From assembly GCA_041661645.1 (NCBI GenBank), contig JBAZUA010000003.1, positions 86,841 to 150,840 on the forward strand: a stretch of DNA of 64,000 bases, read 5' to 3'. The notes under the pieces are model-generated. The model did no database searches and had not been told where the DNA came from. It worked only from the letters and a program-made list of their open reading frames with translations. This document shows positions 3,225 through 59,700 of this stretch, in pieces. Numbering within the stretch: position 1 is the first letter of the stretch; every line of letters begins with the position of its first letter. This DNA is from Minisyncoccota bacterium (GTDB lineage Bacteria; Patescibacteriota; Minisyncoccia; Phycocordibacterales; UBA6065). A program made the translations under genes and the position numbers.

Positions 3225-4517
3225 TTAATCCTTTCTCACGATATCCTGCGCGCCACGCTTGATGTTCCAGGTTCCCGGCGACATGTCATGGTGCATGGCG
3301 AGACCGGGGACAGCGGCCTTGAGGGCCTCTCCCATCCTTTGGGCCTGCAGACGAAGGGTTGGATGTACGGTATCCGAAGATCTAAGCTCTGCTGTATAGA
3401 CGGCTGCGGGGAGAGGACATGTCATCTTTACGACAACTGTGTATCCCATTGCTACATAATATTGTTTGACCTCATCGCCTGCGTCGAGGGCGTCGATCTT
3501 CTGGGCCTGTGCGGCGATGAGGGCCAATGCCTCGGCCTTGAGCGCCTCGGGAAGCTGCTCGAGATACCAGTCATAGAAGCCATGTTTGGTCGAGAGGAGC
3601 GGCATCTCCTGCACGCAGCTGCGATGCCGCTGAAGGTCGCGATATGATCCGAAGTCGAGGGGAAAAGAGAAAATGATGTTTCCGTACTGGCGAATGCGCT
3701 GATGGAGTTCGGCCTTTGCTGGGCGGTCGGAAAGGAGCTTGGCGTGTCGGGCGAGACCGTCGAGGTCGAGCTTTGACTGATACGAGAATCCCGTGATCGA
3801 GGCATCGTCGAAGAAGGCGAACTCCCTCATGCTCTCGGCGATGTACGCCTCCTCGCCCGGATACTCTTTGTGAGAGAAGCTCGATGGGTACTTCCTCTTC
3901 AGTTCATCGTGAATCATGGACGCAACCTCGCGCACCTCGGCGAGGGGATGGTTTCGCATCTCCTTGATATGGTCATATGCCTGGCGAAGATTGGTGTGCC
4001 ATGCCGCGTAGGTCGTGACGCCGGCGGGGAGGAAGCCTCGGGCTATGTCGAAGGCGCGGGCCTTGATGGCCTTCTCGTACATCGTGTCCTTCTCGCCCTC
4101 CTTCATGGGGAAGCGCTCCTTGAGCACGGGCATGAGGGCCTCGAGGATGTGCCTGTAGAATGCCATCCATCCGTCCTGTATCGCCTTGCCCTCGACGCTG
4201 CCCAGGGGATTGAGCACTTCCTGTGCCGCCATGTCGAGGTAGCGGGTGCTTGCCTCCTGTCCGCTGTAAAGCGGCCAGTCCTGCACGGCCTTTGCGACGA
4301 GCATGCTGACGTTCTCGATGAATATGCTGGCCGTTCCGCAGTCTCCGATGGACTTGTGCCCGTAGCCGACATAATAGCTCGCCATGAACTTCTCGGCGCC
4401 GCCTTCCTTCACCTTGGTCAGGTGCTCTTTGACGCTGCGCGGGCTGCGCGAGTACAGGGCCTGGAGCATGGCTACCACCTCGGGGGACAGGTCATCGACG
4501 ATTATGATTTCTTTCAT
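3225..4517 (-). CDS. thyX: flavin-dependent thymidylate synthase ThyX, long form (degenerate N-terminal ThyX-like half plus canonical C-terminal half)
   Basis: ThyX signature RHRX7S present as RHRSCVQEMPLLS; an HxS..EH..F-like segment in the N-half; context with dCMP deaminase, glyA, tmk, dut. Confidence 0.7.
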   Translation of the reverse strand: MKEIIIVDDLSPEVVAMLQALYSRSPRSVKEHLTKVKEGGAEKFMASYYVGYGHKSIGDCGTASIFIENVSMLVAKAVQDWPLYSGQEASTRYLDMAAQEVLNPLGSVEGKAIQDGWMAFYRHILEALMPVLKERFPMKEGEKDTMYEKAIKARAFDIARGFLPAGVTTYAAWHTNLRQAYDHIKEMRNHPLAEVREVASMIHDELKRKYPSSFSHKEYPGEEAYIAESMREFAFFDDASITGFSYQSKLDLDGLARHAKLLSDRPAKAELHQRIRQYGNIIFSFPLDFGSYRDLQRHRSCVQEMPLLSTKHGFYDWYLEQLPEALKAEALALIAAQAQKIDALDAGDEVKQYYVAMGYTVVVKMTCPLPAAVYTAELRSSDTVHPTLRLQAQRMGEALKAAVPGLAMHHDMSPGTWNIKRGAQDIVRKD

Positions 4518-4619
4518 GGGCCTATTGTAGCGGTTTTGGGTCCGGGAAAGAAGTGCAGAACTCTGTTGACCGATGGCGTTTTAAGGCGTATAAAAAGCAA
4601 CAGAACACCTTACATAACC

Positions 4620-12900: not shown

Positions 12901-13483
12901 CTATGCCGAATATCTCTTCGGTCGCGTTCGCGTTGACGCCAACGAGGAGAGTGTTCACCTCGAGCTGTGGCCAAGATGTGTCACAAAAAAGGAATCCCAG
13001 AAACTCATCGATGACATGTCCGAAATTCGCCGACTCGTCACCATTGGCCTCGAGCAAAGGGCCAAGGCGGGCATAAAGGTTCGCCAGCCGCTCGCGTCCC
13101 TTTCCATCAAGAAGGATCAGTTTTGCACGGACCTCCTCGACCTTGTGAAGGACGAGGTTAACGTAAAAGAGGTTCTTCTCGACACGTCTCTCGATCAGGA
13201 GGTTGTCCTCGATGTCGTGGTCACTGACGTCCTTAAGAAAGAGGGCGTCGCTCGCGATGTCATTCGCGCGGTGCAGGATCTCCGCAAGAAGGAGGGTCTG
13301 ACGGTGGGGGACAAGGTCTCGCTTCTTTTGGATTCCGATGAGAAGGGCAAGGAGCTGGTCCATGCTTTTCTCGGCGACATAAAGAGGGTGACCCTCGTTA
13401 CGGGGATCGAATATGCCACCCTTCCTCATGTCGAGCCCCTGGCCATCGAGGGCTACTCATTCAGGCTCGGCATCAGGAAGTAA
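9992..13483 (+). CDS. ileS: isoleucyl-tRNA synthetase, type 2 (eukaryote-like), carrying an inserted histidine-phosphatase domain
   Basis: HIGH = PPFATGLPHFGH; KMSKS = KMAKSKGN; EVFDCWFESGSMPFAQ matches the yeast ILS1 segment; 1163 aa. Confidence 0.9.
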   Translation: MAENTNNPQEPKIKSKLVELEAKTLAFWNERQIFKKTLARKGKDFVFYDGPPFATGLPHFGHLLPTTIKDIIPRYKTMQGYRVKRRWGWDCHGLPVENLIEKELGLKSKKDILDYGIGKFNAAAEASVLRYAKEWREIIPRIGRWVDMEEDYRTMDCGYTESVWWAFKTLHDKGLVYEGFKSMQICPRCETTLSNFEVNQGYKDITDISVFVRLELVGEENTHLLAWTTTPWTLPGNVALAVGSEIDYARVSHDGATYIIARDRVADVFAGKEHSLMSVEKGSALVGKEYKPLFSYFDNGGLKNRANGFKIYAAEFVTTADGTGIVHIAPAFGDDDLKLGQKHDLPFIQHVGMNGVFVPEVLDFRGLEVKPKGDHQSTDIEVIKWLAHKGFLFEKKKIIHSYPHCWRCDTPLLNYATSSWFVRVTDFKDKLVAANKKVSWTPSDIRDGRFGKWLEGARDWAISRSRFWGAPIPVWRGIKSGKIYPVGSIGDLKSLIRKSGNSYTLLRHGESESNVLGILNSEFPNKYHLTKKGREQISERAKALAAQGVDVIVASDFLRTKESARIVAEACGMDAKDIVYDVRLREYSVGPNLEGQAWESIEAAVRKHGLQAGMETPAELKRRVLDAMYDIDRKYFGKKILVISHGAPLNTILHGVQEVPGTDKVSHSERKSFQTPAEMHSLDFVALPHNERFDLDLHRPFIDKVECVAPDGEELVRVSEVFDCWFESGSMPFAQFHYTGSALPHFNPRGGLFRKALGFPADFIAEGVDQTRGWFYTLTVLGVALFGRSPFKNVIVNGIVLAEDGQKMAKSKGNFPPLLDTVDKYGADSLRYFFASSPAVKAEDTRFSEKGVDEVSKKLLQRLDNVLSFFELYGDAKTPMVPDSAHVLDSWIRARLAEVRDEVTAALDACQIDRAARPLMGFVDDLSTWYIRRSRDRFKSDNAVDQALALGTTKYVLREFAKISAPFIPFYAEYLFGRVRVDANEESVHLELWPRCVTKKESQKLIDDMSEIRRLVTIGLEQRAKAGIKVRQPLASLSIKKDQFCTDLLDLVKDEVNVKEVLLDTSLDQEVVLDVVVTDVLKKEGVARDVIRAVQDLRKKEGLTVGDKVSLLLDSDEKGKELVHAFLGDIKRVTLVTGIEYATLPHVEPLAIEGYSFRLGIRK
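11492..12070 (+). other. about 193-aa histidine-phosphatase (PGAM-like, branch 1) domain inserted in-frame in ileS between ...PIPVW..IRKSG and DLDLHRPFIDK..EVFDCWFESG
   Basis: LLRHGESESN (catalytic RHG) and ILVISHGAPL (second His); flanking residues align contiguously with yeast ILS1 (GVRNITDLHRDVIDK). Confidence 0.65.
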
Positions 13484-14038: not shown

Positions 14039-14076
14039 GAACTCCGAGGGCATCTCAGCGTGATATACTTTTAGCT

Positions 14077-16014
14077 ATGTTCGAAAGTGAAAAAAAGAGC
14101 CCTCTCGACAGGCTCAAGAAAGGACTCTACTCAAGGAATGACCTGTTCGGCGATTCCCCGCGACACGACATACGTAGGATTGAGCATGAGGAAATTCCCG
14201 TGTCTTGGGAGCGAGAGGGTATTCCCGAGGAGGGCCCTGCGTCTCCGGCTCAGTCGCCGCGGCCCCTTGGAGTCCGGAAGTCATATAAGATACTTTTCTT
14301 CTCAGCCGCATCTTTTCTCCTCATCGCCCTGGCCGTCGGTGCCTTCACCCTCTTTGGGGGCAGGAACTTCGTATCTGTCGATAACATGGACATACTCATC
14401 GATGGCCCTGTCTCGATCGGAGGGGGGGAGCCTCTTTCCCTCAATGTGTCCGTCAACAACAAGAATAATGCCGAGGTCGAACTGGTTGACCTCATAGCGA
14501 CGTACCCTCAGGGAACCAAGGACCCCCAGGACCCAACAAAGGACCTGGCTCGTACCAGACTCTCTCTTGGGACCATGCCTGCGGGCACCCTCACGCAGCG
14601 GACGTTTCAGTCTCTTATGTTCGGGGAGGAGGGCTCAGACAGGGAGGTTGTCTTCACCGTCGAATACAGGACGGCCAATTCAAACGCCATCTTCTATAAG
14701 GAAAAGTCATATAAGCTCAAGCTCGCGTCCTCGCCCGTCATTGTCTCTGTCGATGCCCTTGATAGGGTTCTGAGCGGTCAGGGCACGCCCGTTACCATCA
14801 CCATCTCTTCTAACACGACCTCGGTGGTCAAGGACCTCTTGCTCGTTCTAGAGTATCCCTCGGGATATTCCGTGACCTCAGCAAACCCCGCGGCAACCTA
14901 TTCAAACAACATATGGCGCATTGGCGATTTGGCGCCGGGCGCAAAGAGAGTGATCTTCCTGAACGGCTCGATTCAGGGCGAAGACGGCGACACGAGAACC
15001 ATTCATGCGAACATTGGCATACGCAACGCGGCAAACGAACGCGAGATCGCCACGCGCGTTGTTTCCAAGGATCATTCGTTCCAGCTAGAGAAGCCTTTCC
15101 TCGGACTGGACCTTGCCCTAAACGGCGTCAGGACCGACAATGTTCCCCTTGAGGCGGGAAGGGTTGTAAGGGCCGATGTCATCTGGACGAACAACAGCGC
15201 CACGAGGATCACCGGCGCTCGCATAGAGGCAAAGCTCTCGGGCAGTGCCCTCGACAGGGGCTCGATCAACGTGACGGGCGGATATTATGATTCGAAAATA
15301 GACACGATCATCTGGGAGGCGGGAAGGGTTTCCGGTCTCGATGCCATCACTCCCGGCGATACGAATCGCGTTGGCTTCACTTTCGCCTCGAAACAGGTGG
15401 TTCCCGGGAAACCCCTCATTAACCCCTCCATGTCCGTCGTCGTCACTGCCCGCGGCAACCGCGTCGATGAGACGGGGGTTTCGCAGGAGGTATCGACCGG
15501 GGTCTCTCGCTCAATCAGGCTCGTATCGAACCTTTCCCTGTCTTCCCGAATCCTCCGGTCCCAGGGTCCTTTCAATAACACAGGCCCTATTCCTCCGAAG
15601 GTTGACCAGGAGACGACCTATACCATCGTATGGACAGTGACTAACACTTCGAATAGTATCAATGACGCACGGGTCACGGCGACGCTCCCGCCCTATGTGT
15701 CGTGGGCTGGCGCCGTAAGCCCTGAGGGTGCGGATGTGACCTATAATCCGACAGGGGGACAGATAACGTGGCTTGTGGGATCGGTTCCCCAGAACGCGGA
15801 TGTGGGCTCAGGCGCACGCCAGGTGGCCTTTCAGGTCATCCTGAGGCCTAGCCTGACCCAGGCGGGATCAAGCCCCGAGGTTATCGGACAGAGCCTGATA
15901 GCCGGGACGGACTCTTTCACGGGAACGAATCTCACCAACTCGGCCCCGGGCCTCTCTACGGTCACGACGACGGATCCTCTCTGGCAGGATGGGCAGGGGG
16001 TAGTCACGAAATAA
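14077..16014 (+). CDS. hypothetical membrane-anchored surface protein with repeated beta-rich extracellular domains
   Basis: Cytoplasmic N-terminus, one TM helix (ILFFSAASFLLIALAVGAFTLF), about 550-aa extracellular region rich in T/S/N/V with repeated domain-like segments. Confidence 0.45.
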   Translation: MFESEKKSPLDRLKKGLYSRNDLFGDSPRHDIRRIEHEEIPVSWEREGIPEEGPASPAQSPRPLGVRKSYKILFFSAASFLLIALAVGAFTLFGGRNFVSVDNMDILIDGPVSIGGGEPLSLNVSVNNKNNAEVELVDLIATYPQGTKDPQDPTKDLARTRLSLGTMPAGTLTQRTFQSLMFGEEGSDREVVFTVEYRTANSNAIFYKEKSYKLKLASSPVIVSVDALDRVLSGQGTPVTITISSNTTSVVKDLLLVLEYPSGYSVTSANPAATYSNNIWRIGDLAPGAKRVIFLNGSIQGEDGDTRTIHANIGIRNAANEREIATRVVSKDHSFQLEKPFLGLDLALNGVRTDNVPLEAGRVVRADVIWTNNSATRITGARIEAKLSGSALDRGSINVTGGYYDSKIDTIIWEAGRVSGLDAITPGDTNRVGFTFASKQVVPGKPLINPSMSVVVTARGNRVDETGVSQEVSTGVSRSIRLVSNLSLSSRILRSQGPFNNTGPIPPKVDQETTYTIVWTVTNTSNSINDARVTATLPPYVSWAGAVSPEGADVTYNPTGGQITWLVGSVPQNADVGSGARQVAFQVILRPSLTQAGSSPEVIGQSLIAGTDSFTGTNLTNSAPGLSTVTTTDPLWQDGQGVVTK

Positions 16015-19324: not shown

Positions 19325-19336
19325 TATGATTGGGTC

Positions 19337-20443
19337 ATGAGCGAGACCCCTCGAGACTTTCGGGTAGAGATAACCGCGGGAACCGTCGTCAAGACGATAT
19401 TCCTCCTTATTTTGACGTATTTGCTCTTCATCCTGAAGGATATCGTGCTCGTCATATTGACCGCTGTGGTCATCGCCTCGTCGATCGAGCCCCTCACTCG
19501 CTGGTTCGTCCGCCGCAGCATTCCTCGCGTCTTTTCCGTGCTCATCATATACGTGCTCATGGGCGCAAGCCTCTTTGGCATGTTCTATGCCTTCGTGCCG
19601 ACCCTTCTGAGGGACACTTCTGAGTTCCTGGGATCGGTTCCCGAGTATATTGAAACCGTGTCGCTCTGGAATCCCCTTGGCACCGACGAGACCGTTCAGT
19701 CCAAGGCCGTCGTCACGAGCCTGGCCCAGGATCTGAATACGACACGGGCTGCCGTCCAGGATTCGAGCGACAGCGTCTCCCTGCAGGGCGTGTTGAGCGG
19801 CATCGACAACGCGATCTCGGACGTGTCCGCCGGCTTCATTCATTCCGCGAGCTCGATATTCGGAGGAGTCGTGAGCTTCATCCTCATCATAGTCCTCTCC
19901 TTCTATCTCGCCGTGCAGGAGGATGGCGTCGCGAGTTTCCTCAGAATCGTCACGCCGCGGAAGCAAGAGGCCTACATCCTCGATCTCTGGAGGCGAACCC
20001 AGACAAAAATTGGTCTTTGGATGCAGGGGCAGGTCGTTCTGGCGGTTCTTGTGGGCGTTCTCGTGTATCTGGGGCTCATGGTGCTCGGCGTGAAAAACGC
20101 CCTCCTGTTCGCCGTCTTTGCCGCCTTTCTTGAGATGATCCCGCTCTTCGGCCCCATTATCGCCGCAATTCCGGCGGTCATGTCATCATATGGAATTGAT
20201 GGGGCGTCGGGCGCCCTCATCGTCGGCGGCCTCTACCTCATAATCCATCAGTTCGAGAATCATCTTATCTATCCCCTGGTCGTTAAGAAGATCGTCGGCG
20301 TTCCGCCGATCCTCGTCATCATATCGCTCCTCGTCGGCTTCAAGCTTGCGGGCTTCCTCGGCATCATTCTCTCGGTCCCCCTCTCATCGATGCTCGTCGA
20401 GTTCATCGATGACGTTCATAAGAGGAAGTTTGCACGGGACTAG
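19337..20443 (+). CDS. AI-2E family transporter (PerM/UPF0118)
   Basis: 8-TM topology and conserved AI-2E C-terminal region (EMIPLFGPIIAAIPA). Confidence 0.75.
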   Translation: MSETPRDFRVEITAGTVVKTIFLLILTYLLFILKDIVLVILTAVVIASSIEPLTRWFVRRSIPRVFSVLIIYVLMGASLFGMFYAFVPTLLRDTSEFLGSVPEYIETVSLWNPLGTDETVQSKAVVTSLAQDLNTTRAAVQDSSDSVSLQGVLSGIDNAISDVSAGFIHSASSIFGGVVSFILIIVLSFYLAVQEDGVASFLRIVTPRKQEAYILDLWRRTQTKIGLWMQGQVVLAVLVGVLVYLGLMVLGVKNALLFAVFAAFLEMIPLFGPIIAAIPAVMSSYGIDGASGALIVGGLYLIIHQFENHLIYPLVVKKIVGVPPILVIISLLVGFKLAGFLGIILSVPLSSMLVEFIDDVHKRKFARD

Positions 20444-22827: not shown

Positions 22828-22864
22828 TTGACAGAAATATACCAAAGTATATACTTTGGTATAT
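22828..22864 (+). promoter_or_regulatory. sigma70-like promoter (TTGACA-16-TATACT) overlapped by a 28-bp perfect palindrome operator, ATATACCAAAGTATATACTTTGGTATAT
   Basis: Perfect dyad at 22837-22864 overlapping the -10 and the dinJ start codon; predicted TSS at or next to the ATG (leaderless). Confidence 0.55.
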
Positions 22865-23135
22865 GAATACGAAAACGCTTCTGACGGTCAAAATGGAAAA
22901 GAGCCTCAAACAGGCGGCACAGGAAACCGCCGCTGAAATTGGCATTCCCTTGGGAACGCTTGTGAACGCGATTCTCAAGCAGTTCGTCAGGACGAAGGAG
23001 GTTAATCTTGATGTTTCGTATGAGCCTACAGAATATCTCAAATCGGTCATAAGAGAGAGCGAAGAAGAGTTTGCGAAAGGCCTGTCGCCAAAAGCGGCAA
23101 ACGTCGACGAGTTGATGAAGGAGCTGCTTTCTTAA
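22863..23135 (+). CDS. dinJ: type II antitoxin, RelB/DinJ family (RHH)
   Basis: Aligns with E. coli DinJ pattern (..R.D..LK..A...L...G...S.L....L......E..L.F); immediately upstream of the YafQ-like toxin. Confidence 0.7.
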   Translation: MNTKTLLTVKMEKSLKQAAQETAAEIGIPLGTLVNAILKQFVRTKEVNLDVSYEPTEYLKSVIRESEEEFAKGLSPKAANVDELMKELLS

Positions 23136-23150: not shown

Positions 23151-23405
23151 ATGATATATCGATCTTCTCATTTCAAAAGACAGCTTAGGAAGCTTTCGCC
23201 TAAGTTGCAGAGGAAAGTGGCTGAAAGATTGCGATTGATGCTTGTGAATGAATTTGACCCGATTTTAAATAATCACAAGCTAGGTGGTGAATATGAGGGC
23301 GATAGAAGCATAAATATAACGGGAGACATCCGCCTTACCTATAAAAGGGAAAGAGATGATTTTTACTTGAGGGTTGTCGGCACCCATAGTCAGCTGTATA
23401 AATAG
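23151..23405 (+). CDS. yafQ: type II toxin, YafQ family (RelE/ParE superfamily mRNA interferase)
   Basis: HKLGGEYEGDRSINITGDIRLTYK...LRVVGTHSQLY aligns with E. coli YafQ HPLQGSWKGYRDAHVEPDWILIYK...LRFERTGTHAALF. Confidence 0.75.
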   Translation: MIYRSSHFKRQLRKLSPKLQRKVAERLRLMLVNEFDPILNNHKLGGEYEGDRSINITGDIRLTYKRERDDFYLRVVGTHSQLYK

Positions 23406-28173: not shown

Positions 28174-30447
28174 TTATAAAGATTTGTCAGAGTTATCCAC
28201 ATCATCGCCCGAATCATCGTCTCCCACGGCTGCCGCCGGGCTTGCACCGGCGACAGAGCGAGCCTTGGAGCCATCCGCGGCGCCTATGACTCCTCGTTCC
28301 TCGAGCAGGTCCATGAGGCGGGCGGCTCTAGAGTAGCCCACACGAAGCTTTCTCTGTATATAGGAGGTTGATGCCTTTCCTGCCTCGAGCACCACCTTGC
28401 GGGCCTCCTCGTACATGTCGTCATCATCGTCTCCCGCACCCTCCGGCTCGTCAAAGCTTGAAGAGAAGATGGCGTTAGGATCCTTTACCGCGTCGGGGCT
28501 GAGGTTTATCTCGTCATTGAGCTCCTCCGAATGGCTTGAAATAAGGTATTTGACCACGGCCTTCACCTCAGCCTCTGATATATAGGCCGACTGGATACGC
28601 GTGGGCTGGGACATCTCGCCGCCGAGATAGAGCATGTCTCCCTGACCGAGGAGCTTTTCGGCCCCCATCATGTCAAGAATGGTTCGGGAGTCGATCTGGG
28701 AGGCAACCTGAAGGGCGAGGCGGGCTGGGATGTTCGCCTTGATGAGGCCGGTAATGACATTGACTGAGGGTCGCTGGGTCGAGAGCATGAGGTGGATACC
28801 GACGGCTCGGGACATCTGGGCCAGGCGGACGATGCCGGCCTCGAGCTCGCGGGGGTATGTCTGCATGATGTCTGCAAGCTCGTCGATGATGACGACGATA
28901 TAGGGAAGGGGCTCTGGTCCGCGCTCCTCGGTTTCCTCGCCATCCTTTTTTATCTTGAACTTCTTTACAGAGGGCTCATAGATGTTTTTATGATACGAGT
29001 CGAGATCTCGCACGCCATGGGATTGGAGAACGTCATAGCGTCGATCCATCTCTTTGGCTGCCCATTTGAGGGAGAGGATGGCTTTCTTTGCGTCGGTGAT
29101 GACGGGGGTGAGGAGATGGGGAATCTTGTTATAGAGGGTGAGTTCGACGCGCTTTGGGTCGATCATGATGAATTTCAGCTTCTGAGGGGAGTTGCGGAAG
29201 AGAAGGGAGACGATAAGGGCGTGAATGGTGACGGACTTTCCGGAACCTGTGGCGCCCGCGATGAGAAGGTGGGGCATCTTGGCGACGTTGGCGAAATGGG
29301 CCTTGCCGGAGATTCCCTTGCCGAGGCCGACGAGAAGAGGCTTCTCCGATGTCTGGTATTCTTCCGCGGAAAGGAGCGTGCCGAGGCCGACGGTGGTCTT
29401 GGTGGTGTTCGGCATCTCGATGCCGACGAGGGACTTGCCCGGGATAGGGGCCTCGATGCGGAGAGGGTGGGCGGCCAGGGCAAGGGAGAGGTCGTTCTGG
29501 AGTCCGAGTATGCGGGAAACTTTGACGCCTTCGGCAGGCTTGAGGGCGTAGCGGGTGACTGATGGTCCGATAGACACCTCATCCATCTCGACGTTGATGC
29601 CGAAGTTCGCGAGGGTTCTCTTTATGATGTTGGCATTCGCCTTGACGTCGCCCACGACCGGTCGGCCCTTGTCCTTCTCGAGGAGGGTGAGTGGGGGAGG
29701 GGTGTACTCCTTGTCCGAGTCCTTGGACTTCTTGATGAAGTCCTTGCCTTCGTCTTCGTTGATCGCAACCTTAAACTTAGACGCCTTTTCCGTTTTTGGT
29801 TTCTCCTCCGTTTCAGCATCGTCCTTCTTCTCCTTTCGCTTCTTCGGAGTCTCTTCCTCGACGGGGAGTGACAGCTTGAGGTTCAGGTCCTCTTCCTCCT
29901 TCTCGTCCTCGTCGACGTTTTTCTTGTCGAAGGAGAGGAGTGATTTTATGTCGAGCTCTTCATTGAAGGCCACGAGCACCGAGACGATCACAAGCGCCGA
30001 GAGGACGACGAGGCTCGCTGACATGTCGAAGAGTCTCACGAAGGGCCAGGCAACCCAAGTGCCGATGAAGCCTCCGCTGCCGACAGACACTATATCTATG
30101 ATTCCCAGGGTGAAGGTCAGGAAGCCCAGTGAGCCATAGAGTTTGATGGCGTTGAATCGGCTGTGGATATTTCGAAGGGACAAGGTTCCCAGTATGAAGA
30201 ATATGAGGGGGAGAAGATAGTAGCCCACGCCGAGGAGATAGGAGAGTCCCTTATAGGTGTAATGACCCGCCGCCCCGCCGCCCCAGATGGCGAGGGATGT
30301 AAACACCGCAAGGGTAAACCAGAGCACCGCAAAGATTCCCTGTATCGTCTCGTCATGGAGGCCGGAGAGTATCCCGGCCGACGCCTCTTTCTTTTCCGTC
30401 TTTCTGCTGATTTTTTCGGGCTTGTCGGCCTGTTTCTTTTTTGCCAT
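28174..30447 (-). CDS. ftsK: DNA translocase FtsK/SpoIIIE
   Basis: 4 N-terminal TM helices, acidic linker, motor domain with Walker A GATGSGKS, C-terminal gamma wHTH; start at MAKKKQ (the ORF upstream of it reads through the promoter region). Confidence 0.9.
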   Translation of the reverse strand: MAKKKQADKPEKISRKTEKKEASAGILSGLHDETIQGIFAVLWFTLAVFTSLAIWGGGAAGHYTYKGLSYLLGVGYYLLPLIFFILGTLSLRNIHSRFNAIKLYGSLGFLTFTLGIIDIVSVGSGGFIGTWVAWPFVRLFDMSASLVVLSALVIVSVLVAFNEELDIKSLLSFDKKNVDEDEKEEEDLNLKLSLPVEEETPKKRKEKKDDAETEEKPKTEKASKFKVAINEDEGKDFIKKSKDSDKEYTPPPLTLLEKDKGRPVVGDVKANANIIKRTLANFGINVEMDEVSIGPSVTRYALKPAEGVKVSRILGLQNDLSLALAAHPLRIEAPIPGKSLVGIEMPNTTKTTVGLGTLLSAEEYQTSEKPLLVGLGKGISGKAHFANVAKMPHLLIAGATGSGKSVTIHALIVSLLFRNSPQKLKFIMIDPKRVELTLYNKIPHLLTPVITDAKKAILSLKWAAKEMDRRYDVLQSHGVRDLDSYHKNIYEPSVKKFKIKKDGEETEERGPEPLPYIVVIIDELADIMQTYPRELEAGIVRLAQMSRAVGIHLMLSTQRPSVNVITGLIKANIPARLALQVASQIDSRTILDMMGAEKLLGQGDMLYLGGEMSQPTRIQSAYISEAEVKAVVKYLISSHSEELNDEINLSPDAVKDPNAIFSSSFDEPEGAGDDDDDMYEEARKVVLEAGKASTSYIQRKLRVGYSRAARLMDLLEERGVIGAADGSKARSVAGASPAAAVGDDDSGDDVDNSDKSL

Positions 30448-30573
30448 GCGGCCATTATACCACTTTACATAAGGCTGTAATAAGGCCCGTTTGCGTCCCG
30501 GGATATTTCGTGTCGCAGGGCGTAAATGCCCTTTACGTCCTTTACCTCTCGGACATATAATGGACAGACTCTC

Positions 30574-30602
30574 TTGACATTTTCCTATAAAGGACATATT
30601 AT
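30574..30602 (+). promoter_or_regulatory. candidate sigma70 promoter (TTGACA-17-TATTAT) for the 30665 gene in the ftsK divergent region
   Basis: Hexamers with 17-nt spacing about 60 nt upstream of the ORF. Confidence 0.35.
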
Positions 30603-30664
30603 ATATAGGACAAAAACAAGGTTCCGGAAGAGACAAACTAAAGGACGAATCATAAAAGACATAT

Positions 30665-31444
30665 ATGGAATCACCTCGAATGGACACGGATAAGACGATG
30701 GGAGGCATAATGGTCTTCAGCCAGAATAACCATTTCGCCTATATCTATAAAAAGACCGAGAAGCTCGTCACGGCGGTCTATATGATTACTAATTTCATCA
30801 AGGACAACGAGCCTCTCAAGTGGCGCATTCGAGAGAAGTCTCTCGAGCTCCTCTCCCTTAACGTGTCTCTGAACACGGTGTCCCTCTCGGACAGGAAGGA
30901 CCTTCTCAAGAAGTATCGGGCGCGCTCGGTCGAGATTGTGTCCCTTTCGAGCATCGCCAATCATTCCGGCCTTATCTCAGAAATGAACTGCGATATCCTT
31001 AAAAGGGAATTCAACAATCTTGCTTCAACGATAGAGAAAGACGAAAACAAGAAGGCAAGCGAGGAGACCGTCATTCTGAGTCCGAGCTTTTTTGATACTC
31101 CTATCGCGTCTCAGCAGATCCAGGAACAGACCCAATTGGCCCCAAGGGTAGTTCCCGTGCCGTCTGCCCAAATCGCCCCCATCGCCGCGGCCCCTCAGAA
31201 TGTCCTTTATAAGAGACAGGGGGTCTCACAGGCTACGCCAAGGAAGGCTGAGTCAAAGAACGATCGTCAGGAGTCTATACTTAAGGTCCTTTCAACTCGG
31301 AACAAGCTTTCCGTAAAGGACTTTACCGATACCATCAAAGGCGTGAGCGAGAAAACTATCCAGCGCGAGCTTCTGTCGATGGTTTCCTCGGGTGTCCTTA
31401 AGAAAGAGGGGGAGAGGCGCTGGAGTACCTACTCTATTGCCTAG
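30665..31444 (+). CDS. hypothetical protein with predicted C-terminal winged-helix (HTH) DNA-binding domain
   Basis: C-terminus RQESILKVLSTRNKLSVKDFTDTIKGVSEKTIQRELLSMVSSGVLKKEG resembles a DeoR/HTH_11-type wHTH; Gln/Pro-rich linker; start uncertain. Confidence 0.4.
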   Translation: MESPRMDTDKTMGGIMVFSQNNHFAYIYKKTEKLVTAVYMITNFIKDNEPLKWRIREKSLELLSLNVSLNTVSLSDRKDLLKKYRARSVEIVSLSSIANHSGLISEMNCDILKREFNNLASTIEKDENKKASEETVILSPSFFDTPIASQQIQEQTQLAPRVVPVPSAQIAPIAAAPQNVLYKRQGVSQATPRKAESKNDRQESILKVLSTRNKLSVKDFTDTIKGVSEKTIQRELLSMVSSGVLKKEGERRWSTYSIA

Positions 31445-39295: not shown

Positions 39296-39466
39296 TATCA
39301 GTATTCAAAGGCCGGAGAAAGCAGGCGACTCGCGAGAGTCCTAATCCCGAAAGGGCAAGCCTGCCGAGGTCGAAACGCATGTCGCAAGGCATGTCGTCTC
39401 TACTCCAATTCCGGCCCACCGCAAGGTGGCCGGGCCTTTTATTATTAGCGGCTTATCCAACATCAT
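39296..39466 (+). promoter_or_regulatory. candidate ribosomal protein L10 leader (autoregulatory 5' UTR of rplJL)
   Basis: 170-nt structured untranslated region directly upstream of rplJ with the hairpin GGCCCACCgcaaGGTGGCCGGGCC; location-based inference. Confidence 0.3.
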
Positions 39467-39958
39467 ATGGCCATAAGCAAGGACAAGAAGAAGGTAATTC
39501 TCGAAGGTCTCCGAACCATCCTCAAGGATGCGTCAACGGTAGTCTTCGTGAACTTCAAGGGACTCAAGGTGAACGACGCGGTCAAGCTCCGCAAGGACTT
39601 GAAGAAGCAGGGCGTCGGATACACTGTCGCCAAGAAGACTCTCATGGGCATCGCCTTGGGCGAGCAGAAAGTCGAGGGCGCACAGCCGGATCTAGCAGGC
39701 GAGGTGGCGATTGCCTACGGCAAGGACCAGATCGCGCCGGCTCGAGAGATCCACGAGTTCGCGAAGAAGAACAAGGGAGTCATGACGATCATCGGAGGCG
39801 TGTTCGACGGCAAGTTCGTCGACGCAAACAAGATGATCTCGATCGCATCGATCCCATCGATGCAGACCCTCAGGGCTCAGTTCGTCAATCTCATCAATTC
39901 CCCTATACAGGGATTTGTCATGGCGGCGAGCGAGATAGCGAAGAAGAAACAGCAGTAA
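39467..39958 (+). CDS. rplJ: 50S ribosomal protein L10
   Basis: MAISKDKKK..VILEGLRTILKDASTVVFVNFKGLKVNDAVKLRK.L...GV.Y.V.K.TL. Confidence 0.9.
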   Translation: MAISKDKKKVILEGLRTILKDASTVVFVNFKGLKVNDAVKLRKDLKKQGVGYTVAKKTLMGIALGEQKVEGAQPDLAGEVAIAYGKDQIAPAREIHEFAKKNKGVMTIIGGVFDGKFVDANKMISIASIPSMQTLRAQFVNLINSPIQGFVMAASEIAKKKQQ

Positions 39959-39986
39959 CACTTATCAGCGGTACTATTAAAAAACT

Positions 39987-40358
39987 ATGGAAACCCCAGC
40001 AAAGTTCAAGTCAATCGTCGAGGCAATCGAGACCATGTCAGTTCTCGACCTCCACGAGCTCGTAAAGCACCTCGAGGAGAAGTTCGGCGTCTCGGCAGCG
40101 GCAGTCGCGGTTGCGGCTCCTGCGGCAGCGGCGGCGGGCGAGGAGAAGTCTACCTTCACGGTAGAGCTCACCGACGGCGGCGCATCGAAGATCAGCGTTA
40201 TCAAGGTTGTTAAGGAGGCTCTCGGTCTCGGACTCAAGGAGGCAAAGGATCTCGTTGACGGCGCTCCAAAGGTTCTCAAGGAGGGAGTCAAGAAGGAGGA
40301 CGCTGACAAGCTCAAGAAGGACATCGAGGCGGCAGGCGGAAAGGTCACCCTCAAGTAA
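39987..40358 (+). CDS. rplL: 50S ribosomal protein L7/L12
   Basis: N-terminal dimerisation helix, Ala-rich hinge [16 protein letters not shown]-terminal domain [48 protein letters not shown]. Confidence 0.95.
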
Positions 40359-41992: not shown

Positions 41993-42885
41993 ATCTCTAT
42001 TCCGATTATGTTAAACCCTCAATCAAAAGCGGACTAGATAAGACCAGTTTCTGGCCTTGTTTAAGTACCGCTCAGACCGAGCGGTTTTTAATTTTCGGGA
42101 GGTGCTGTTATTTGAAATACGAACCCCGTCCCACTAGTCTTCCGCCCTCAAAAGCGGATGGTCTTTTCAAGAGTGGAGACGACTACATTCGTACGTTAGA
42201 TCGTGCGGATGTAAAACCTGCATCTTTCTCCCAGGAAGAGAGGATGCAGTGCAACAGGTAAAAATTAAATTGTATGAGTGTTCGTTGTAAGCGAACACTC
42301 TCATTGAGAATGAGTTTAAGTGGTTTTTAAATTTCCTAATAGGAAATTTAAGAGCATATGGTGGATGCCTTGGCTTCTGAGAAGCGATGAAGGACGTTGC
42401 GTAGCGACGATATGTTCGGGGAGCTGCCGAGCGAGCTTTGATCCGAACGTTTCCGAATGAGGAAACTCCATGTCGAGTGATCGACATGACCTTGGCCTTT
42501 ATGGTCAAGGAGCATACCCTGGGAAGTAAAACATTTCAGTACCAGGAGGAAGAGAAAACAATGTCCGCGTACTGCGGACGATATTTCCTTAGTAGTGGCG
42601 AGCGAAAGGGAAAGAGCCCAAACCTAGTCTTAATCGTGCGGTATGTCGCAAGACGTGCAGCGCGATTAAGACTGGGGGTTGTAAGATGATGATGTCACTA
42701 TTTATAGTGGAAAGAGTTACAAAATGTTTTGTTAGCAGAATTGGCTGGAAAGCCAGACCCTAGTGAGTGATAGTCTCGTATGCGAAAATAAAACATCTCT
42801 TTTATTGTCATTCTTGAGTACCCCAGGACACGAAAAGCTTGGGGGAATCTACCGGAACTAACCGGTAAGGCTAAATATTCCAGAA

Positions 42886-42918
<33 letters not shown>

Positions 42919-43505
42919 CGAAAAGAACCCCGGAGAGGGGAGTGAAATAGACCTGAAACCATATGCTTACAAGGAGTCGGAGCGGTAATTTATTACCGTC
43001 ACGGCGTGCCTATTGAAGAATGAGCCAACGAGTTAATGCATGCTGCAAGGCTAAGGGCTTGAATGCCCGGAGCCGCAGGGAAACCGAGTGTGAATAGCGC
43101 GACTCAGTAGTATGTATTAGACCCGAAGCCGGGTGAGCTTGCCATGTGCAGGTTGAAGTTTGTCGAAAGACAGATGGAGGACCGAACGCTAGAGACGTGC
43201 AATACTCTGCGATGACATGTGGTATGGAGTGATAAGCTCATCGAACTCGGTAATAGCTGGTTCTCTCCGAAATATGTTTAGGCATAGCGTCGTATGTTCC
43301 CACGAGGGGTAGAGCACTGGAAGATTCTGACAGGTAGAAATACCGCAGAACCTATCAAACTCCGAATACTCGTGGTTAAAAGTACGGCAGTAAGACCGTG
43401 GGGGCTAAGCTCCACAGGTCAAAAGGGAAACAGCCCGCATCTCAATTTAAGGTCCCAAAATTCATGCTAAGTACAAGTGAGGTGGTGAATCTTCTCTGAC
43501 GGTGA

Positions 43506-43537
<32 letters not shown>

Positions 43538-44389
43538 GAAAGCGTAACAGCTCACTCACTTAGAGGGTTTGCGCCGCAGATGATCGGGGTTAAAGCATGA
43601 TACCGAAACTGAGGATTGCATCCATATTCGTATGGGTGCACTGGTAGGAGAGTATTCTACTCTGCGATGAAGGCAAAGGGGTGACCCATGCTGGAGCGTG
43701 TAGAAGTAAGAATGTTGGCACAAGTAACCACAATGCGGATGAGAAATCCGCACGCCGGAAGATTAAGGTTTCCTTCGCAATGGATTTCAGCGAAGGGTTA
43801 GTCGGGCCTAAGGGGATGGTGAAAACCGTACCTGATGGACACATGGTTAATATTCCATGACTGGCGTTTGGTGCGATGGGAGGACGGAGCACAGTATGTG
43901 TAGCCCCTTATTGGATTGGGGTTGTTGGTCTCAGGGCGATATGCGAGGAAAATCCCGCATTCTGCATTTATTTGCGAGCCTAAGGACAGACGGGAAGGCT
44001 GGGTTCGCCCAGCGGAACTACACAGAGCGAGCTTTCAAGAAAATTCTCTAAGCATAACCAAACGCTATCCGTACCGAAAACCGAAACAGGTGATCGGCTC
44101 GAGGAGAGCAAGGCGAACGAGTGAAGGTCCTTCAAGGAACTCGGCAAAAAATCAGCCGTAAGTTAGCGATAAGGCTTGCCCTCTCTTTATTGAGGGGGCC
44201 GCAGCGAAAGTATGCCTGGCGACTGTTTATCAAAAACACAGCTCCCTGCGAACTCGTAAGAGGATGTATAGGGGGTGACACTTGACCAATGCCAGAAGGT
44301 CAACCAGCGGCGTTGCCACGTATTTATACGTGGTGGTGACTGCTGTAAGCCCTGGTGAATGTCGGCGGTAACTATAACCGTCCTAAGGT

Positions 44390-44606
44390 TCTGCATCTTT
44401 CGCAAGAAGGGTGCAGAAGGACTGGGACGGTCATAGCAGTGTTAGATGAACAAGAACCTAATAGAAGTTACACAAATAGCTACCTGACATCGCAGTAATG
44501 CATTGTCAGTCCACACATGATCAACAAGAGACCAACGTCATGGATCCGAACTCGTCAATTCGTTGATGGGAGGATTAAGATAGAGTCCGACTTAGAGGAA
44601 TAGTTG
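44390..44606 (+). ncRNA. putative group I intron (217 nt) in 23S, between E. coli-equivalent U1931 and A1932 (CCUAAGGU | AGCGAAAUUCC)
   Basis: Exon sequence is contiguous with E. coli once 44390-44606 is removed; 5' exon ends in U, insert ends in G; internal AAGATAGAGTCCGAC resembles the group I J8/7-P7 3' strand. Confidence 0.5.
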
Positions 44607-45267
44607 AGCGCAATTCCTTGTCAGGTAAGTTCTGACGCGTTGAATAGTGTAACGTCTGGGCAACTGTCTCGAAGGACAGCTCGGTGAAAATACAATCCCG
44701 GTGAAGATGCCGGGTACCTGCAGTTAGACGAAAAGACCCTAGAAGCTTTACTATAGCTTGATATTGAGTATACGATTCTGATGCGTAGCATAGACGTGAG
44801 GATTTGAAGTGCGCTTTCGGGTAGCATGGATCCGCCAGTGAAATAGCGTTCTTCAGTGTTGTATATTCTAACCCCGAGGGCAAAAACCGCGGGAGACAGT
44901 ATCTGGTGGGTAGTTTTAGTGGGGCGCTATCCTCCTAAAAAGTAACGGAGGAGCCTATTAAGGTCAGTTAGCCGTGAATGGAAACCATGGCGATAGTGTA
45001 TGGGCATAAACTGGCTTAACTGTAAGACGTACATGTCGAGCAGATGCGAAAGCAGAGCTAAGTGAACCGACGGATCGCGTTAGATGCGGCCGGAGATTAT
45101 CGGACAAAAGCTACCCTAGGGATAACAGGCTCGTTCCGCCTAAGAGTTCATATCGACGGCGGAGTTCGGCACCTCGATGTCGGCTCATCTTATCCTGGGG
45201 CTGGAGAAGGTCCCAAGGGTTTGGCTGTTCGCCAATTAAAAAGGTACGTGAGCTGGGTTCAGACCGT

Positions 45268-45556
45268 TCAGAAGGTGATTGCGCATAGTCGCGCGATCAT
45301 GCACTGGACAGTCTGAATCCCTCGGACATCATGAGGAAAAAAGAGACAACAACCAATCACGGCGCCCGCAACGAGCAATCATTGCGGAGCCAGTTAACTA
45401 ATATCGGTGAAGCCCGACAGGCGCAAGCTTGGGGTAATACCGAGGGAAGCAGAGTCATATCTGCACCCGTAGAGACTACACGTTAACCTCCACATCGAAA
45501 TAATGAGATGTGGATGAAGATATAGTCCAATGCACAGAGTAATTTGTGAAAACATG
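45268..45556 (+). ncRNA. putative group I intron (289 nt) in 23S at the E. coli-equivalent L2593 site (GAACGU | CGUGAGACAG)
   Basis: Exons rejoin to GAGCTGGGTTCAGACCGT/CGTGAGACAGGTTGGTC; 5' exon ends in U, intron ends in G; contains GTAGAGACTACACG (P7 5'-like GACUA) and GAAGATATAGTCC, which matches the Tetrahymena J8/7-P7 element AAGAUAUAGUC. Confidence 0.6.
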
Positions 45557-45956
45557 CGTGAGACAGGTTGGTCTCCTATCTACTGCAGGCGTTGATTCTT
45601 GAGGAGTTTTGCTTCTAGTACGAGAGGACCGAAGTGAACGGACCGCTGGTCTGCCTGCTGTCACGCCCGTGGCAACGCAGGGTAGCTATGTCCGGAACGG
45701 ATAACCACTGAAAGCATCTAAGTGGGAAGCCGCCTCCAAGATAAGGAATCGTTTGAGGGCCCTAGGAGACTACTAGGTTGATAGGCTTTAGGTGTACACG
45801 CAGCAATGCGTTGAGCCGAGAAGTACTAATTACCCGATCTTATTAGGAAATTTATGAATCACTCATGGCGAGGGCCATGATTACTGATTCTTGATGATTT
45901 AATTATATTTGTTGCAAGTTCGTATTCCTGAAAACAGCACGATTGAATTCTGTGTT

Positions 45957-46062
45957 CTGGTGATTTAACGCGGTGGCACCACCTCTTCCCATCCCGAACA
46001 GAGAAGTTAAACGCCGTAGTGCCGATGATAGTCCTTATGGGCGAAAGTAGGTAGTCGCCAGT
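45957..46062 (+). rRNA. rrf: 5S ribosomal RNA
   Basis: GCGGTGGCACCACCTCTTCCCATCCCGAACAGAGAAGTTAAACGCCGTAGTGCCGATGATAGT...GTAGGTAGTCGCCAG; flanking processing stem GATTGAATTCTGTG / CACAGAATTCAATC. Confidence 0.85.
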
Positions 46063-46081
46063 ACACAGAATTCAATCAAAG

Positions 46082-57190: not shown

Positions 57191-57218
57191 TTGACCCCTT
57201 TAAAGCCCTGTGTATAAT
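57191..57218 (+). promoter_or_regulatory. candidate 16S rRNA promoter (TTGACC-16-TGTATAAT, extended -10)
   Basis: Hexamers plus TG; spacer motif shared with the 23S promoter. Confidence 0.5.
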
Positions 57219-57532
57219 GGTTGTTACCCCTCAAGTAGAGGGGGAAAAAGTTTTCGGTCTTTGAAATAATTATTGTTATTAAATATTTGAGAACGTGCAG
57301 TAGAAAACTGGTTATAAAGTTTCTACGCATTGTGCAAGTTAATTCAATTGAGAAGTTGGTTGTCGCAATTCGATGCAGATTCAGCATTCGATGCGACGTT
57401 AAACATATATAGGATTGTGGAGACCCCGGTAGCACGGGGAATCCCAGAACAAAGTAGTGAGCACTCATACTGTGATCTATTTTGTTCCGTTCGTCTTTCA
57501 GTGCACTCTTTCGGGAGTTTGCTGAAAGATTT

Positions 57533-59023
57533 AAAACAAGAGTTTGATCCTAGCTCAGGATGAACGCTGGCGGCGTGGATAAGGCATGCAAGTCAAGGGG
57601 GCCGCAAGGCAACCGGCGAACGAGGTAGTAATAAGTAGGTACGAACCTTCAAGTCAAGCATAGCTCGTCGAAAGACGGGGTAATTCTTGATAGTCCCTTC
57701 GGGGTAAAGATTTATCGCTTGAAGATCGGCCTGCTCGGTATCAGCTAGTTGGTGAGGTAAAAGCTCACCAAGGCAATGACGCCTAGGGGACCTGAGAGGG
57801 TGACCCCCACCGATGGAACTGAGACACGGTCCATACACCTACGGGTGGCCGCAGTCGAGAATCTTCCGCAATGGACGAAAGTCTGACGGAGCGACGCCGC
57901 GTGCAGGATGAAGTCCTTCGGGATGTAAACTGCTTTTATAGGGGAGGAAGTTTATTGACGTTACCCTAAGAATAAGAGGTTGCTAAACTCGTGCCAGCAG
58001 CAGCGGTAATACGAGTGCCTCAAGCGTTATCCGGAATCATTGGGCGTAAAGGGTTTGTAGGTGGTCATGTTAGTCTTTCGTTAAATTTCCCGGCTTAACC
58101 GGGAACATGCGGAGGAAACGGCATGACTTGAGGATGCAAGGGGTCTGCGGAACTCATAGTGTAGCGGTGAAATGCGTTGATATTATGGGGAACACCAAAA
58201 GCGAAGGCAGCAGACTGGGGCACTCCTGACACTGAAAAACGAAAGCGTGGGTAGCGAATGGGATTAGATACCCCAGTAGTCCACGCCCTAAACGATCTTC
58301 TCTAGCTATTTGGAGTATCGACCCTCTGAGTGGCGTAGCTAACGCGTTAAGAGAAGCGCCTGGGTAGTACGACCGCAAGGTTAAAACTCAAAGGAATAGA
58401 CGGGGACTTGCACAAGCGGAGGATCATGTGGTTTAATTCGATGGTAAACGAAGAACCTTACCAGGGTTGGAAATCTAGTTGAAGCCGAGCAGAAACGTTC
58501 GGCGCCGCAAGGCAATTAGACAGGTGCTGCATGGTCGTCGTCAGTTCGTGATTTGAATTGTTCCCTTCAGTGGGGTAACGAACGCAACCCTCATTGCCTG
58601 TTACAAGTGTCAGGCGAGACTGCCCAGCTTTTTGGTCACAATCGAAAGATTGCGCACAAGAAGCTGGGAGGAAGGTGAGGATGACGCCAGATCAGCATGG
58701 CCCTTTGATACCCTGGGCTACACACGTGATACAATGGCACTTACAACGCGAAGCGACGGGGAAACCCTGAGCAAATCGTTTAAAGAGTGCCCTAGTTCGG
58801 ATAGGAGTCTGCAACTCGACTCCTTGAAGCTGGATTCGCTAGTAATCTCGGGTCAGCTATACCGAGGTGAATACGTTCTCAAGTCTTGTACTCACCGCCC
58901 GTCAACTCAAGGGAGTTGGGAGTGCCCGAAGTCCGCGCTTGTCGCGGCCTAAGGCAAGCTCAATGACAGGGAGTAAGTCGTAACAAGGCACGGGTAGCGG
59001 AAGCTGCTCGTGGATTATTTCAA
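57533..59023 (+). rRNA. rrs: 16S ribosomal RNA (about 1.49 kb, no intron), 3' tail lacking the CCUCC anti-Shine-Dalgarno
   Basis: 5' AGAGTTTGATCCTAGCTCAGGATGAACGCTGGCGGCG; GTGCCAGCAGCAGCGGTAATAC (515 site variant); 3' GTCGTAACAAGGCACGGGTAGCGGAAGCTGCTCGTGGATTATTTCA. Confidence 0.9.
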
Positions 59024-59160
59024 GTGAAAACCGCTTTCCACTCTGTGGAGAGCTTACGGAGTCGATCATATTTATATGGGTTTTTCAGATACCTACAACT
59101 GAATGGACGTCAGGGAAGAACTGGCAAACAGAACGGAGCAAAGTAGAGGATAGTATGAAG

Positions 59161-59190
59161 AAAAAACCACCCGAAAGGGTGGTTTTTTCG
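59161..59190 (+). terminator. rho-independent terminator downstream of 16S
   Basis: AAAAAACCACCCgaaaGGGTGGTTTTTTCG. Confidence 0.75.
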
Positions 59191-59227
59191 TTGTGGCATA
59201 AGGGTTTTACGGAAGTAGGGGAAGGTA

Positions 59228-59255
59228 TTGACAAAAGTGTTGTATATGATATGAT
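59228..59255 (+). promoter_or_regulatory. candidate promoter (TTGACA-16-TATGAT) for the small ORF and tRNA-Ile
   Basis: Hexamers with 16-nt spacing between the 16S terminator and the 59328 ORF. Confidence 0.35.
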
Positions 59256-59327
59256 TATAATGTAAAAGCTCGGAGGGAGACCTCCTTTTGTCAGTCAGAG
59301 GGAATAGGAAACAGCCTGATTTCATCA

Positions 59328-59576
59328 ATGAAAACCAGTAGAACTCTTACGGATCTTGGTGTCGGTCACCATGAATCCCTGGGGGAGAAATTCCTCCGTC
59401 TCGTGAGCTCTGTAACGGAACTCACCGCGAAGCAGAAGATTCTGCTCGCCATCCCGGTCGGAATTGTCAGCGCTCCTCTTGCGTTTGGCATGATCCGATT
59501 CATCCTCATCGTTGGTTTCGGAAAATCAGCAGTCCCCATCATGTGGTTGGACTGGTGGTGGGTTTGGCTTCGGTAG
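59328..59576 (+). CDS. hypothetical small membrane protein
   Basis: 82-aa ORF with a C-terminal hydrophobic/Trp-rich segment; terminator follows. Confidence 0.3.
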   Translation: MKTSRTLTDLGVGHHESLGEKFLRLVSSVTELTAKQKILLAIPVGIVSAPLAFGMIRFILIVGFGKSAVPIMWLDWWWVWLR

Positions 59577-59588
59577 CCACCCACAAAC

Positions 59589-59628
59589 TCTGCGCCCCTG
59601 GCACCCGTGCCCGCGGCGCAGTTTTTTA
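59589..59628 (+). terminator. rho-independent terminator
   Basis: CTGCGCCcctggcacccgtgcccgcGGCGCAGTTTTTT. Confidence 0.6.
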
Positions 59629-59700
59629 TTGTCAAAACAGCCGTTTTCTGCTATATTTTCCAAGCTTCAAGCCAGGGTTGGGGCAGGGGTTCATAGACAT

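Follow-up and report, generated by a model that had tools for sequence, protein, structure and literature searches.

Tsurumaki et al. (2022, RNA 28:1041; PMC9297842) describe a subgroup of Parcubacteria that lacks both an anti-Shine-Dalgarno (anti-SD) motif in the 16S ribosomal RNA (rRNA) and ribosomal protein uL1. The DNA analysed here, a 64,000-nt stretch of a Minisyncoccota genome (contig JBAZUA010000003.1, positions 86,841 to 150,840 of the forward strand, hereafter the window), resembles that subgroup in being of the candidate phyla radiation (CPR) type, in carrying a 16S rRNA gene (rrs) without CCUCCU, and in missing rplA near rplK and rplJ. For one subgroup of Parcubacteria, anti-SD loss has thus been described before, and the window is a clear example of it rather than a discovery. 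Tsurumaki et al. report the absence of the motif only, with no analysis of gene starts, leaderless genes, replacement tails or hairpins, whereas the gene-start analysis, leaderless signature, and covarying tail hairpin presented here are modest new detail beyond the published loss. With a probability of roughly 0.85, we conclude that the window derives from a Parcubacteria-type (CPR/Patescibacteria) genome in which the anti-SD core of the 16S rRNA has been lost as a lineage trait, and in which translation initiates independently of Shine-Dalgarno (SD) pairing.

Outside the CPR, Lim, Furuta and Kobayashi (2012, PMC3457768) identified genomes without an anti-SD in 15 of 1182 cases, comprising insect primary symbionts, haemotropic Mycoplasma, and some Flavobacteria. 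In these genomes all rrs copies lack CCUCC, SD-like sequences are eliminated upstream of genes, the 16S tails are U-rich and degenerate (UUUCU, CUUUU), and the leaders are A-rich; the one rrs seen in the window likewise lacks CCUCC, and the other features are similar there. However, these genomes belong to other phyla and to symbionts of insects or blood, whereas the window belongs to an environmental, episymbiont-type member of the CPR with a strong leaderless signature and a genome of 55% G+C, such that AT drift is not an obvious cause of the loss. According to Jha et al. (2021, PMC7797042), the genes of Bacteroidia also lack SD sequences and have A-rich, “Kozak-like” start contexts, as do those of the window, however Bacteroidia keep a canonical anti-SD hidden under bS21, bS18, and bS6, whilst in the window the anti-SD sequence itself is gone. 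The leaderless-rich Actinobacteria and Deinococcus-Thermus share with the window a TANNNT -10 box ~12 nt before the start codon (Zheng et al. 2011, PMC3160421). Both keep the anti-SD and use SD sequences on leadered genes, in contrast to the window, where leadered genes also lack SD sequences. A further likeness is found in the mammalian mitochondrial ribosome, which is reduced, has a 12S rRNA without an anti-SD, and translates leaderless or near-leaderless mRNAs, however mitochondria are organelles with a handful of mRNAs, dedicated factors, and no sigma-70 promoter logic.

The 16S rRNA 3′ tail in the window and its relatives

A single full-length 16S rRNA gene lies at positions 57532-59025 (+), matching the Rfam model SSU_rRNA_bacteria (RF00177; cmscan) with 1362.5 bits over model positions 1-1533, with no further 16S copy in the 64 kb and with a tail that is not the canonical CACCUCCUU. 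In the covariance-model alignment, helix 45 (CACGGGUAGCGGAAGCUGCUCGU, 58989-59011, +) is intact with a GGAA loop, and is followed at 59012-59025 (+) by GGAUUAUUUCAAGU where the model has GGAUcACCUCCUUu/GGAUCACCUCCUUA. GGAU occupies 59012-59015, with UAUUUCAAGU (59016-59025) aligned to cACCUCCUUu of the model, and in this register the CCUCC core is replaced by UUUCA, whilst the GAUYA element is retained as GAUUA. The initial annotation, which had described a 16S 3′ end without an anti-SD and a change of CCUCC to UAUUU, is borne out as regards the loss and the replacement itself, however its register was shifted by two bases. Era recognises GAUYA together with CCUCC, and era is lost in most CPR according to a review (PMC10582724), so a second constraint on CCUCC may be gone as well.

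The anti-SD might nevertheless be present if the true mature 3′ end lay further downstream, beyond an intervening sequence, and included a CCUCC such as that encoded by CCTCC at 59281-59285. A hairpin (GGAGGgagaCCTCC) is indeed found 260 nt downstream of the 16S gene, and insertions are known in the rRNA genes of CPR, with the 23S rRNA here measuring 3517 nt compared with 2925 nt for its model. However, the trailer at 59131-59158 (+) pairs with the leader at 57465-57492 (+) in a predicted pre-16S processing stem, with 26 of 28 bp formed upon cofolding, and a putative intrinsic terminator, the strong hairpin AAAAAACCACCC GAAA GGGUGGUUUUUU at 59161-59190 (+), closes the 16S unit directly thereafter, as suggested by folding and by terminator-type partial Rfam matches. 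No CCUCC is found between 59016 and this terminator, and when the trailer and the DNA beyond it (58700-59700) were searched against Rfam by E-value, the matches obtained were all partial and terminator-like. The CCTCC at 59281, which is part of the GGAGGgagaCCTCC hairpin, instead lies behind a promoter of its own (TTGACA at 59228, a 16-nt spacer, and TATGAT), near the 5′ end of another unit with a small open reading frame (ORF). A leader-trailer helix, built from different sequences, is also present in 11 relatives, and in none of the 11 does CCUCC occur in the stretch from GGAU to the stem's 3′ strand. A downstream 3′ end bearing CCUCC, which would have overturned the claim of anti-SD loss, is therefore not supported by the processing stem, the terminator, or the relatives, and is exceedingly improbable.

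The loss extends well beyond the window. A metagenome scan, with a pattern that left all but the 1492 region, the loop of helix 45, and GGAU free, yielded at least 120 loci; among the matches listed, the helix 45 type of the window was found in 120 metagenomic loci, and CCUCC was missing at the canonical place in 118 of these 120 16S genes. The closest relatives among the matches listed (L063, 91.7% 16S identity; L061, 91.0%, on a 519-kb contig; L092, 89.3%) are all without CCUCC, with the tail of L063 and L061 (UAUUUCAAGUGAAA) identical to that of the window and L092 carrying the close variant UAAUUCAAAUUGAA. L076 and L112 also share the identical tail, such that the comparison with related genomes proposed in the initial annotation finds the same 3′ end in L061, L063, L076, and L112. 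As relatives carry the same tail, a canonical second rrs copy is unlikely, and anti-SD loss is a fixed lineage trait.

The recurrence of the tail also bears on whether the 16S gene of the window is a degenerate or chimeric copy, either a pseudogene or an assembly artefact, with a canonical rrs elsewhere doing the work. Such a copy would be in keeping with the 64 kb of genome seen, the separation of the 16S gene from the 23S-5S pair, and unusual features of the 16S rRNA, whose helix 44 is short and which carries an insertion and variant primer sites. However, the gene matches the Rfam model over its full length and with a consistent structure, the promoter, processing stem, and terminator are intact, and the same tail and layout are found in independent metagenomes at 89-92% identity. 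Furthermore, the genes lack SD sequences and internal GGAGG is not avoided, although a working anti-SD would select against it, making a degenerate copy highly improbable.

Named genomes provide the affiliation of the window. From a genome-contig scan using the spacer N{90,120}, 25 named CPR loci were obtained, a set that misses the closest genomes, with the helix 44 region of the window (70 nt) falling outside this spacer. Within these metagenome-assembled genomes (MAGs), CCUCC is kept (CACCUCCUUUCU) in Magasanik-, Falkow-, Moran-, and Peribacteria, and is missing in Niyogi-, Kaiser-, and Liptonbacteria and in several genomes labelled “Patescibacteria group”. The window 16S rRNA is only 77-78% identical to those of the named MAGs retrieved, and its helix 45 and tail type are common to the Niyogi-, Kaiser-, Liptonbacteria and “Patescibacteria group” MAGs, consistent with a CPR/Parcubacteria affiliation, with the gene content and rRNA peculiarities of the window also typical of CPR. 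A scan of viral contigs with the N{90,120} 16S pattern gave no match.

The ribosomal protein genes agree with this placement. In the secE-nusG-rplK cluster (1390-2576, +; Pfam), a dCMP deaminase gene follows where rplA would be expected, and rplJ-rplL (39467-40358, +), with A/C-rich leaders devoid of SD sequences (ccaacatcatATG and aaaaaactATG), likewise have no rplA before them. The rplA gene, encoding uL1, was found neither after rplK (2154-2576) nor before rplJ (39467), and tblastn with E. coli uL1 gave no match in the 64 kb. The absence of rplA beside both genes matches the uL1-less, anti-SD-less Parcubacteria of Tsurumaki et al. (2022). Directly upstream of rplJ, a GC-rich structured region (39300-39466) ends in a terminator-like hairpin (ggcccaccgcaaggtggccgggcctttt); this region matches no Rfam family above threshold, and may be an autoregulatory element of the L10-leader type.

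Gene starts and routes of initiation

With the anti-SD lost, ribosomes cannot use SD pairing, and the genes of the window carry no SD sequences. Taking the first ATG of the longest ORF as the start, 38 ATG-start ORFs were analysed, with GGAG, GAGG, or AGGA present at -20 to -4 in 2 of the 38 compared with 17.5% of random 17-mers from the window (binomial P = 0.027, or 0.006 for 1 of 38, one of the two SD-like starts being false). GGAGG itself precedes none of the 38 starts. The same script applied to 49 kb of E. coli, as a positive control, recovered SD-like cores at 22 of 38 starts (58%) against a background of 7%, with a G peak at -14 to -7, while related anti-SD-less loci have such cores at 10-15% of starts against a background of 10-15%. 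Around the 38 starts of the window, G accounts for 5-16% of bases at -13 to -4 (background 27%) with no G peak, A for 37-58% at -13 to -3, and C or T for 89% at -1. These values uphold the earlier observations of about 40 starts without a GGAGG-like motif, the SD-like cores (1-2 of 38) falling below the 17.5% background, and of an A/C-rich upstream context. SD-like sequences are eliminated upstream of the protein-coding genes, as in the genomes of Lim et al. (2012). The one strong SD-like candidate, AAGGAGGTGAAGG (AAGGAGG) before the ATG at 7572, was rejected as it lies within the dUTPase coding region, with the arginyl-tRNA synthetase gene truly starting at the ATG at 7636, behind aaacat.

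The coding sequences give a complementary picture. In the window they amount to 48 kb and contain 108 GGAGG motifs (2.2/kb), seven times the density in E. coli (0.32/kb). Compared with synonymous-codon shuffles, internal GGAGG is not avoided in the window (observed/expected 0.95, z = -0.7), in contrast to E. coli (observed/expected 0.46, z = -3.6), as predicted for a ribosome without an anti-SD. The mRNA features alone, with A-rich, G-poor leaders and no SD sequences, are similar to those of Bacteroidia, where SD-blind ribosomes have their anti-SD sequestered by bS21, bS18, and bS6, and both rpsF and rpsR are present in the window. However, the Bacteroidia mechanism is defined by the retention of a canonical anti-SD, whereas the window 16S rRNA lacks CCUCC, leaving sequestration with almost no probability as an explanation here.

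Zheng et al. (2011) define bacterial leaderless genes by a TANNNT motif ~12 nt upstream of the start codon. Upstream regions were pooled from anti-SD-less loci, and of the 386 that are non-redundant, 50 have a TANNNT starting at -12 and 32 have one starting at -13, compared with 14.3 per position elsewhere (Poisson P = 1.8e-13 and 4e-5, respectively), a significance reached by combining related loci. The -12 class is further marked by TG at -15/-14, corresponding to an extended -10 element, and by TTG at -35 to -33 with a 17-nt spacer. The pooled anti-SD-less loci therefore have TANNNT at about -12 above background, as in the definition of Zheng et al., and the leaderless component suggested by the initial annotation is sustained by the excess at -12 and -13. 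After background subtraction, roughly 14% of ORFs carry the leaderless signature, a share that would be larger among the first genes of operons.

Two genes of the window had been put forward as leaderless. For the gene of a DinJ-like antitoxin (22828-23135, +), the claim is borne out by a textbook leaderless layout, with TTGACA (22828), a 16-nt spacer, and TATACT (22850) placed 7 nt before the ATG at 22863, consistent with a leaderless transcript. Its product has no Pfam match at E ≤ 0.001, and a YafQ toxin ORF lies downstream (23151-23405). For ftsK, the TATAAT box is present at the in-frame ATG at 30597, however the stated spacing of 8 nt does not hold, as the box abuts this ATG (0 nt) and it is TATATAAT that begins 8 nt upstream. 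A transcript start at this ATG is disfavoured because the box is too close, and no -10 box is found at position 30708, where the longest ftsK ORF begins, making this example ambiguous. The longest ftsK ORF (28174-30708, -), with candidate starts at the ATGs at 30708 and 30597, overlaps the start of a divergent gene for a helix-turn-helix protein (30665-31444, +) by 44 nt. Further leaderless candidates, by the position of their -10 boxes, are the dCMP deaminase gene (2639-3154, +; TATACT 6 nt before the ATG at 2651), thyX (3225-4529, -; TACAAT 6 nt before the ATG at 4517), the gene of an AI-2E transporter (19325-20443, +; TATGAT 6 nt before the ATG at 19337), and the gene of a DUF11 protein (14064-16014, +; TATACT 7 nt before the ATG at 14077).

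The 304 leadered starts are G-poor and evenly enriched in A between -20 and -3, without a positioned motif. Starts also fall in a marked minimum of structure, with 40-nt windows there having a mean minimum free energy of -3.0 kcal/mol compared with -7 to -8 kcal/mol inside genes. Many same-strand gaps measure only 2-12 nt, compatible with translational coupling, and rpsA is not found in the 64-kb window. The flat profile is also relevant to whether the anti-SD has been replaced rather than lost, with the U-rich tail UAUUUCAAG pairing in the leaders with an A-rich “SD”, for example GAAAUA, that had evolved alongside it. The tails are U-rich and conserved within clades, the leaders are A-rich, and AAAUAA is seen in a few of them. 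However, neither the hybridisation energy between a tail and its own leaders nor the longest complement exceeds that of shuffled leaders in any of five tail groups (z = 0.1 and 0.0 for the group of the window), a positioned A peak is absent from the 304 leadered starts, and a hairpin accounts better than leader pairing for the portion of the tail that is conserved. Replacement by a new pairing partner is thus very unlikely, if somewhat less so than a degenerate 16S copy.

SD-independent initiation may instead proceed by three routes. In the first, leaderless mRNAs would be produced from promoters whose sigma-70-type -10 box lies 6-7 nt before the ATG, with transcription starting at or next to the start codon, a mechanism suggested by the sequence signature. 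In the second, the A(/C)-rich, G-poor, weakly structured starts of leadered and internal genes may let a 30S subunit or a scanning 70S ribosome reach the AUG, possibly with a role for S1. In the third, genes separated by very short intergenic gaps would be reached through coupling.

SD-independent initiation as a general feature of the organism, as proposed by the initial annotation, fits all of the tests, with no anti-SD in the 16S rRNA and trailer, the same state in relatives, SD sequences depleted at gene starts, and internal GGAGG tolerated. Several points weigh against this conclusion. Taken by itself, the window gives a weak leaderless signal, with TANNNT at -12 in 3 and at -13 in 2 of 34 upstream regions, plus the dinJ-like gene. 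Most bacteria have a minimum of structure around their start codons, so that this feature is not specific here, and the rule used for calling starts was a simple one. The evidence from the window covers 64 kb of a genome that may hold a second, canonical rrs, or rplA, rpsA, and era, elsewhere, whilst transcription start sites and the mature 16S 3′ end are deduced from sequence. Finally, anti-SD-bearing CPR, as a control, have SD sequences at 19% of starts against a background of 8%, from only 36 starts, and given this modest use SD sequences may have been little used even before the anti-SD was lost.

A hairpin in the replacement tail

In place of the CUCC-loop-GGAG of anti-SD-bearing CPR, the window has a mini-hairpin, UUUC-AAGU-GAAA, at 59018-59029 (+), supported by shuffle and arm-permutation tests. 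Most replacement tails form a hairpin of 3-5 bp after GGAU-YA, the position at which, in anti-SD-bearing CPR, the anti-SD pairs with a trailer segment that resembles an SD. Of 120 unique anti-SD-less tails, 62% form a hairpin of 4 bp or more, compared with 35±4% of shuffles (maximum 48%), and in the tail family of the window the native 3′ arm pairs perfectly in 31 of 47 sequences, compared with a mean of 18.9 and a maximum of 25 over 500 arm permutations, both statistics being inflated by the kinship of the sequences. Helices of the types UUCA/UGAA, UUUC/GAAA, UUCC/GGAA, UCCU/AGGA, and UUCU/AGAA are found among the tails, representing compensatory changes. RNAalifold gave no consensus structure for a MAFFT alignment of 13 trailers, in which stem-loops of unequal length were misaligned.

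The hairpin after GGAU is most likely a precursor element for 3′-processing of the pre-rRNA that has outlived the anti-SD. It would be the descendant of the hairpin formed in other bacteria between the anti-SD and an SD-like sequence in cis, retained through compensatory changes once CCUCC was no longer needed. Alternatively, the anti-SD may have been remodelled and not simply lost. Were both arms retained in the mature 16S rRNA, the platform cleft would contain an intrinsic mimic of the helix that SD and anti-SD form. Ribosomes of this kind would be “SD-engaged” constitutively, and adapted to mRNAs that are leaderless or unstructured. A mature end near GGAUUAUUUCAAG would confine the hairpin to the precursor, whereas an end past GAAA(ACCG) would favour the helix mimic. 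By analogy with other bacteria, the 3′ arm is probably removed during maturation, and as anti-SD-bearing CPR share the hairpin, a role restricted to the precursor is the likelier of the two, with the helix mimic regarded as unlikely.

Some tails resemble intermediates or variants, including those of L042 (CACCUUCUUUCU, with one C-to-U change), L095 (CACUUCCAUGUGGAA), and the Gracilibacteria MAG L019 (CACCCCUUAACAGGG), and the trailer of L070 contains, after 15 nt, the stem-loop CCUCC-UUCG-GGAGG. The trailer of the window also contains the motif GGAGUCGAUC (core GUCGAU/GUCGAC) at 59058-59067, which recurs in the trailers of most anti-SD-less Parcubacteria loci (L026-L145), at a variable distance from the 16S gene and between covarying stem-loops. 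This motif could be a processing or antitermination signal.

Gene neighbourhood and significance

The rRNA genes of the window are unlinked, with 23S-5S (42334-46063) followed by ~11.5 kb of protein genes, including ftsW, glycosyltransferase genes, and secD/secF, then by tRNA-Leu, and then by the 16S gene as a promoter-to-terminator unit of its own. A candidate promoter for this unit, TTGACC-16-TATAAT at 57191-57218 (+), was located by a consensus scan with 11 of 12 matches. Relatives have the same layout, with the 16S gene followed by a tRNA gene and no 23S gene nearby. Between the 16S gene and tRNA-Ile lies the small separate unit at 59228-59660, consisting of the promoter (59228-59255), a 5′ hairpin (GGAGGgagaCCUCC) with UUUU behind it, an ORF for an 82-aa hydrophobic membrane protein (59330-59578), and a terminator (59607-59625), with another promoter and then tRNA-Ile further downstream.

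Both large rRNAs depart from their models. The tip of helix 44 in the 16S rRNA is truncated, with 70 nt between the 1390s and 1490s anchors compared with 94-115 nt in other CPR loci, and an insertion of ~45 nt is found near 58620-58665; the 515F primer site reads GCAGCAGCGG, and the decoding-centre strand has a U within GUACUCAC. The additional length of the 23S rRNA (42334-45850) is spread over several insertions, e.g. at ~42560 and at 42632-42665, with no convincing ORF seen inside them. Two proteins of the window also have uncommon architectures. The isoleucyl-tRNA synthetase (9992-13483) has a His_Phos_1 histidine-phosphatase domain inserted at residues 504-660 within the class I catalytic domain, and ThyX (ORF 3225-4517, -; 430 aa) has its Thy1 domain confined to residues 14-211, with a long C-terminal extension.

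Rare in bacteria overall, anti-SD loss is common in one branch of the CPR that is large and uncultured, and the window offers a clean, internally controlled example at 55% G+C. Genes in such lineages have no SD sequences, tolerate internal SD-like sequences, and in many cases carry a promoter-at-start-codon signature, with the practical consequence that starts in these genomes will be mis-called by gene finders that depend on modelling an SD. Lineages without an anti-SD are a natural system for SD-independent initiation, and for 16S 3′-end processing without an anti-SD.

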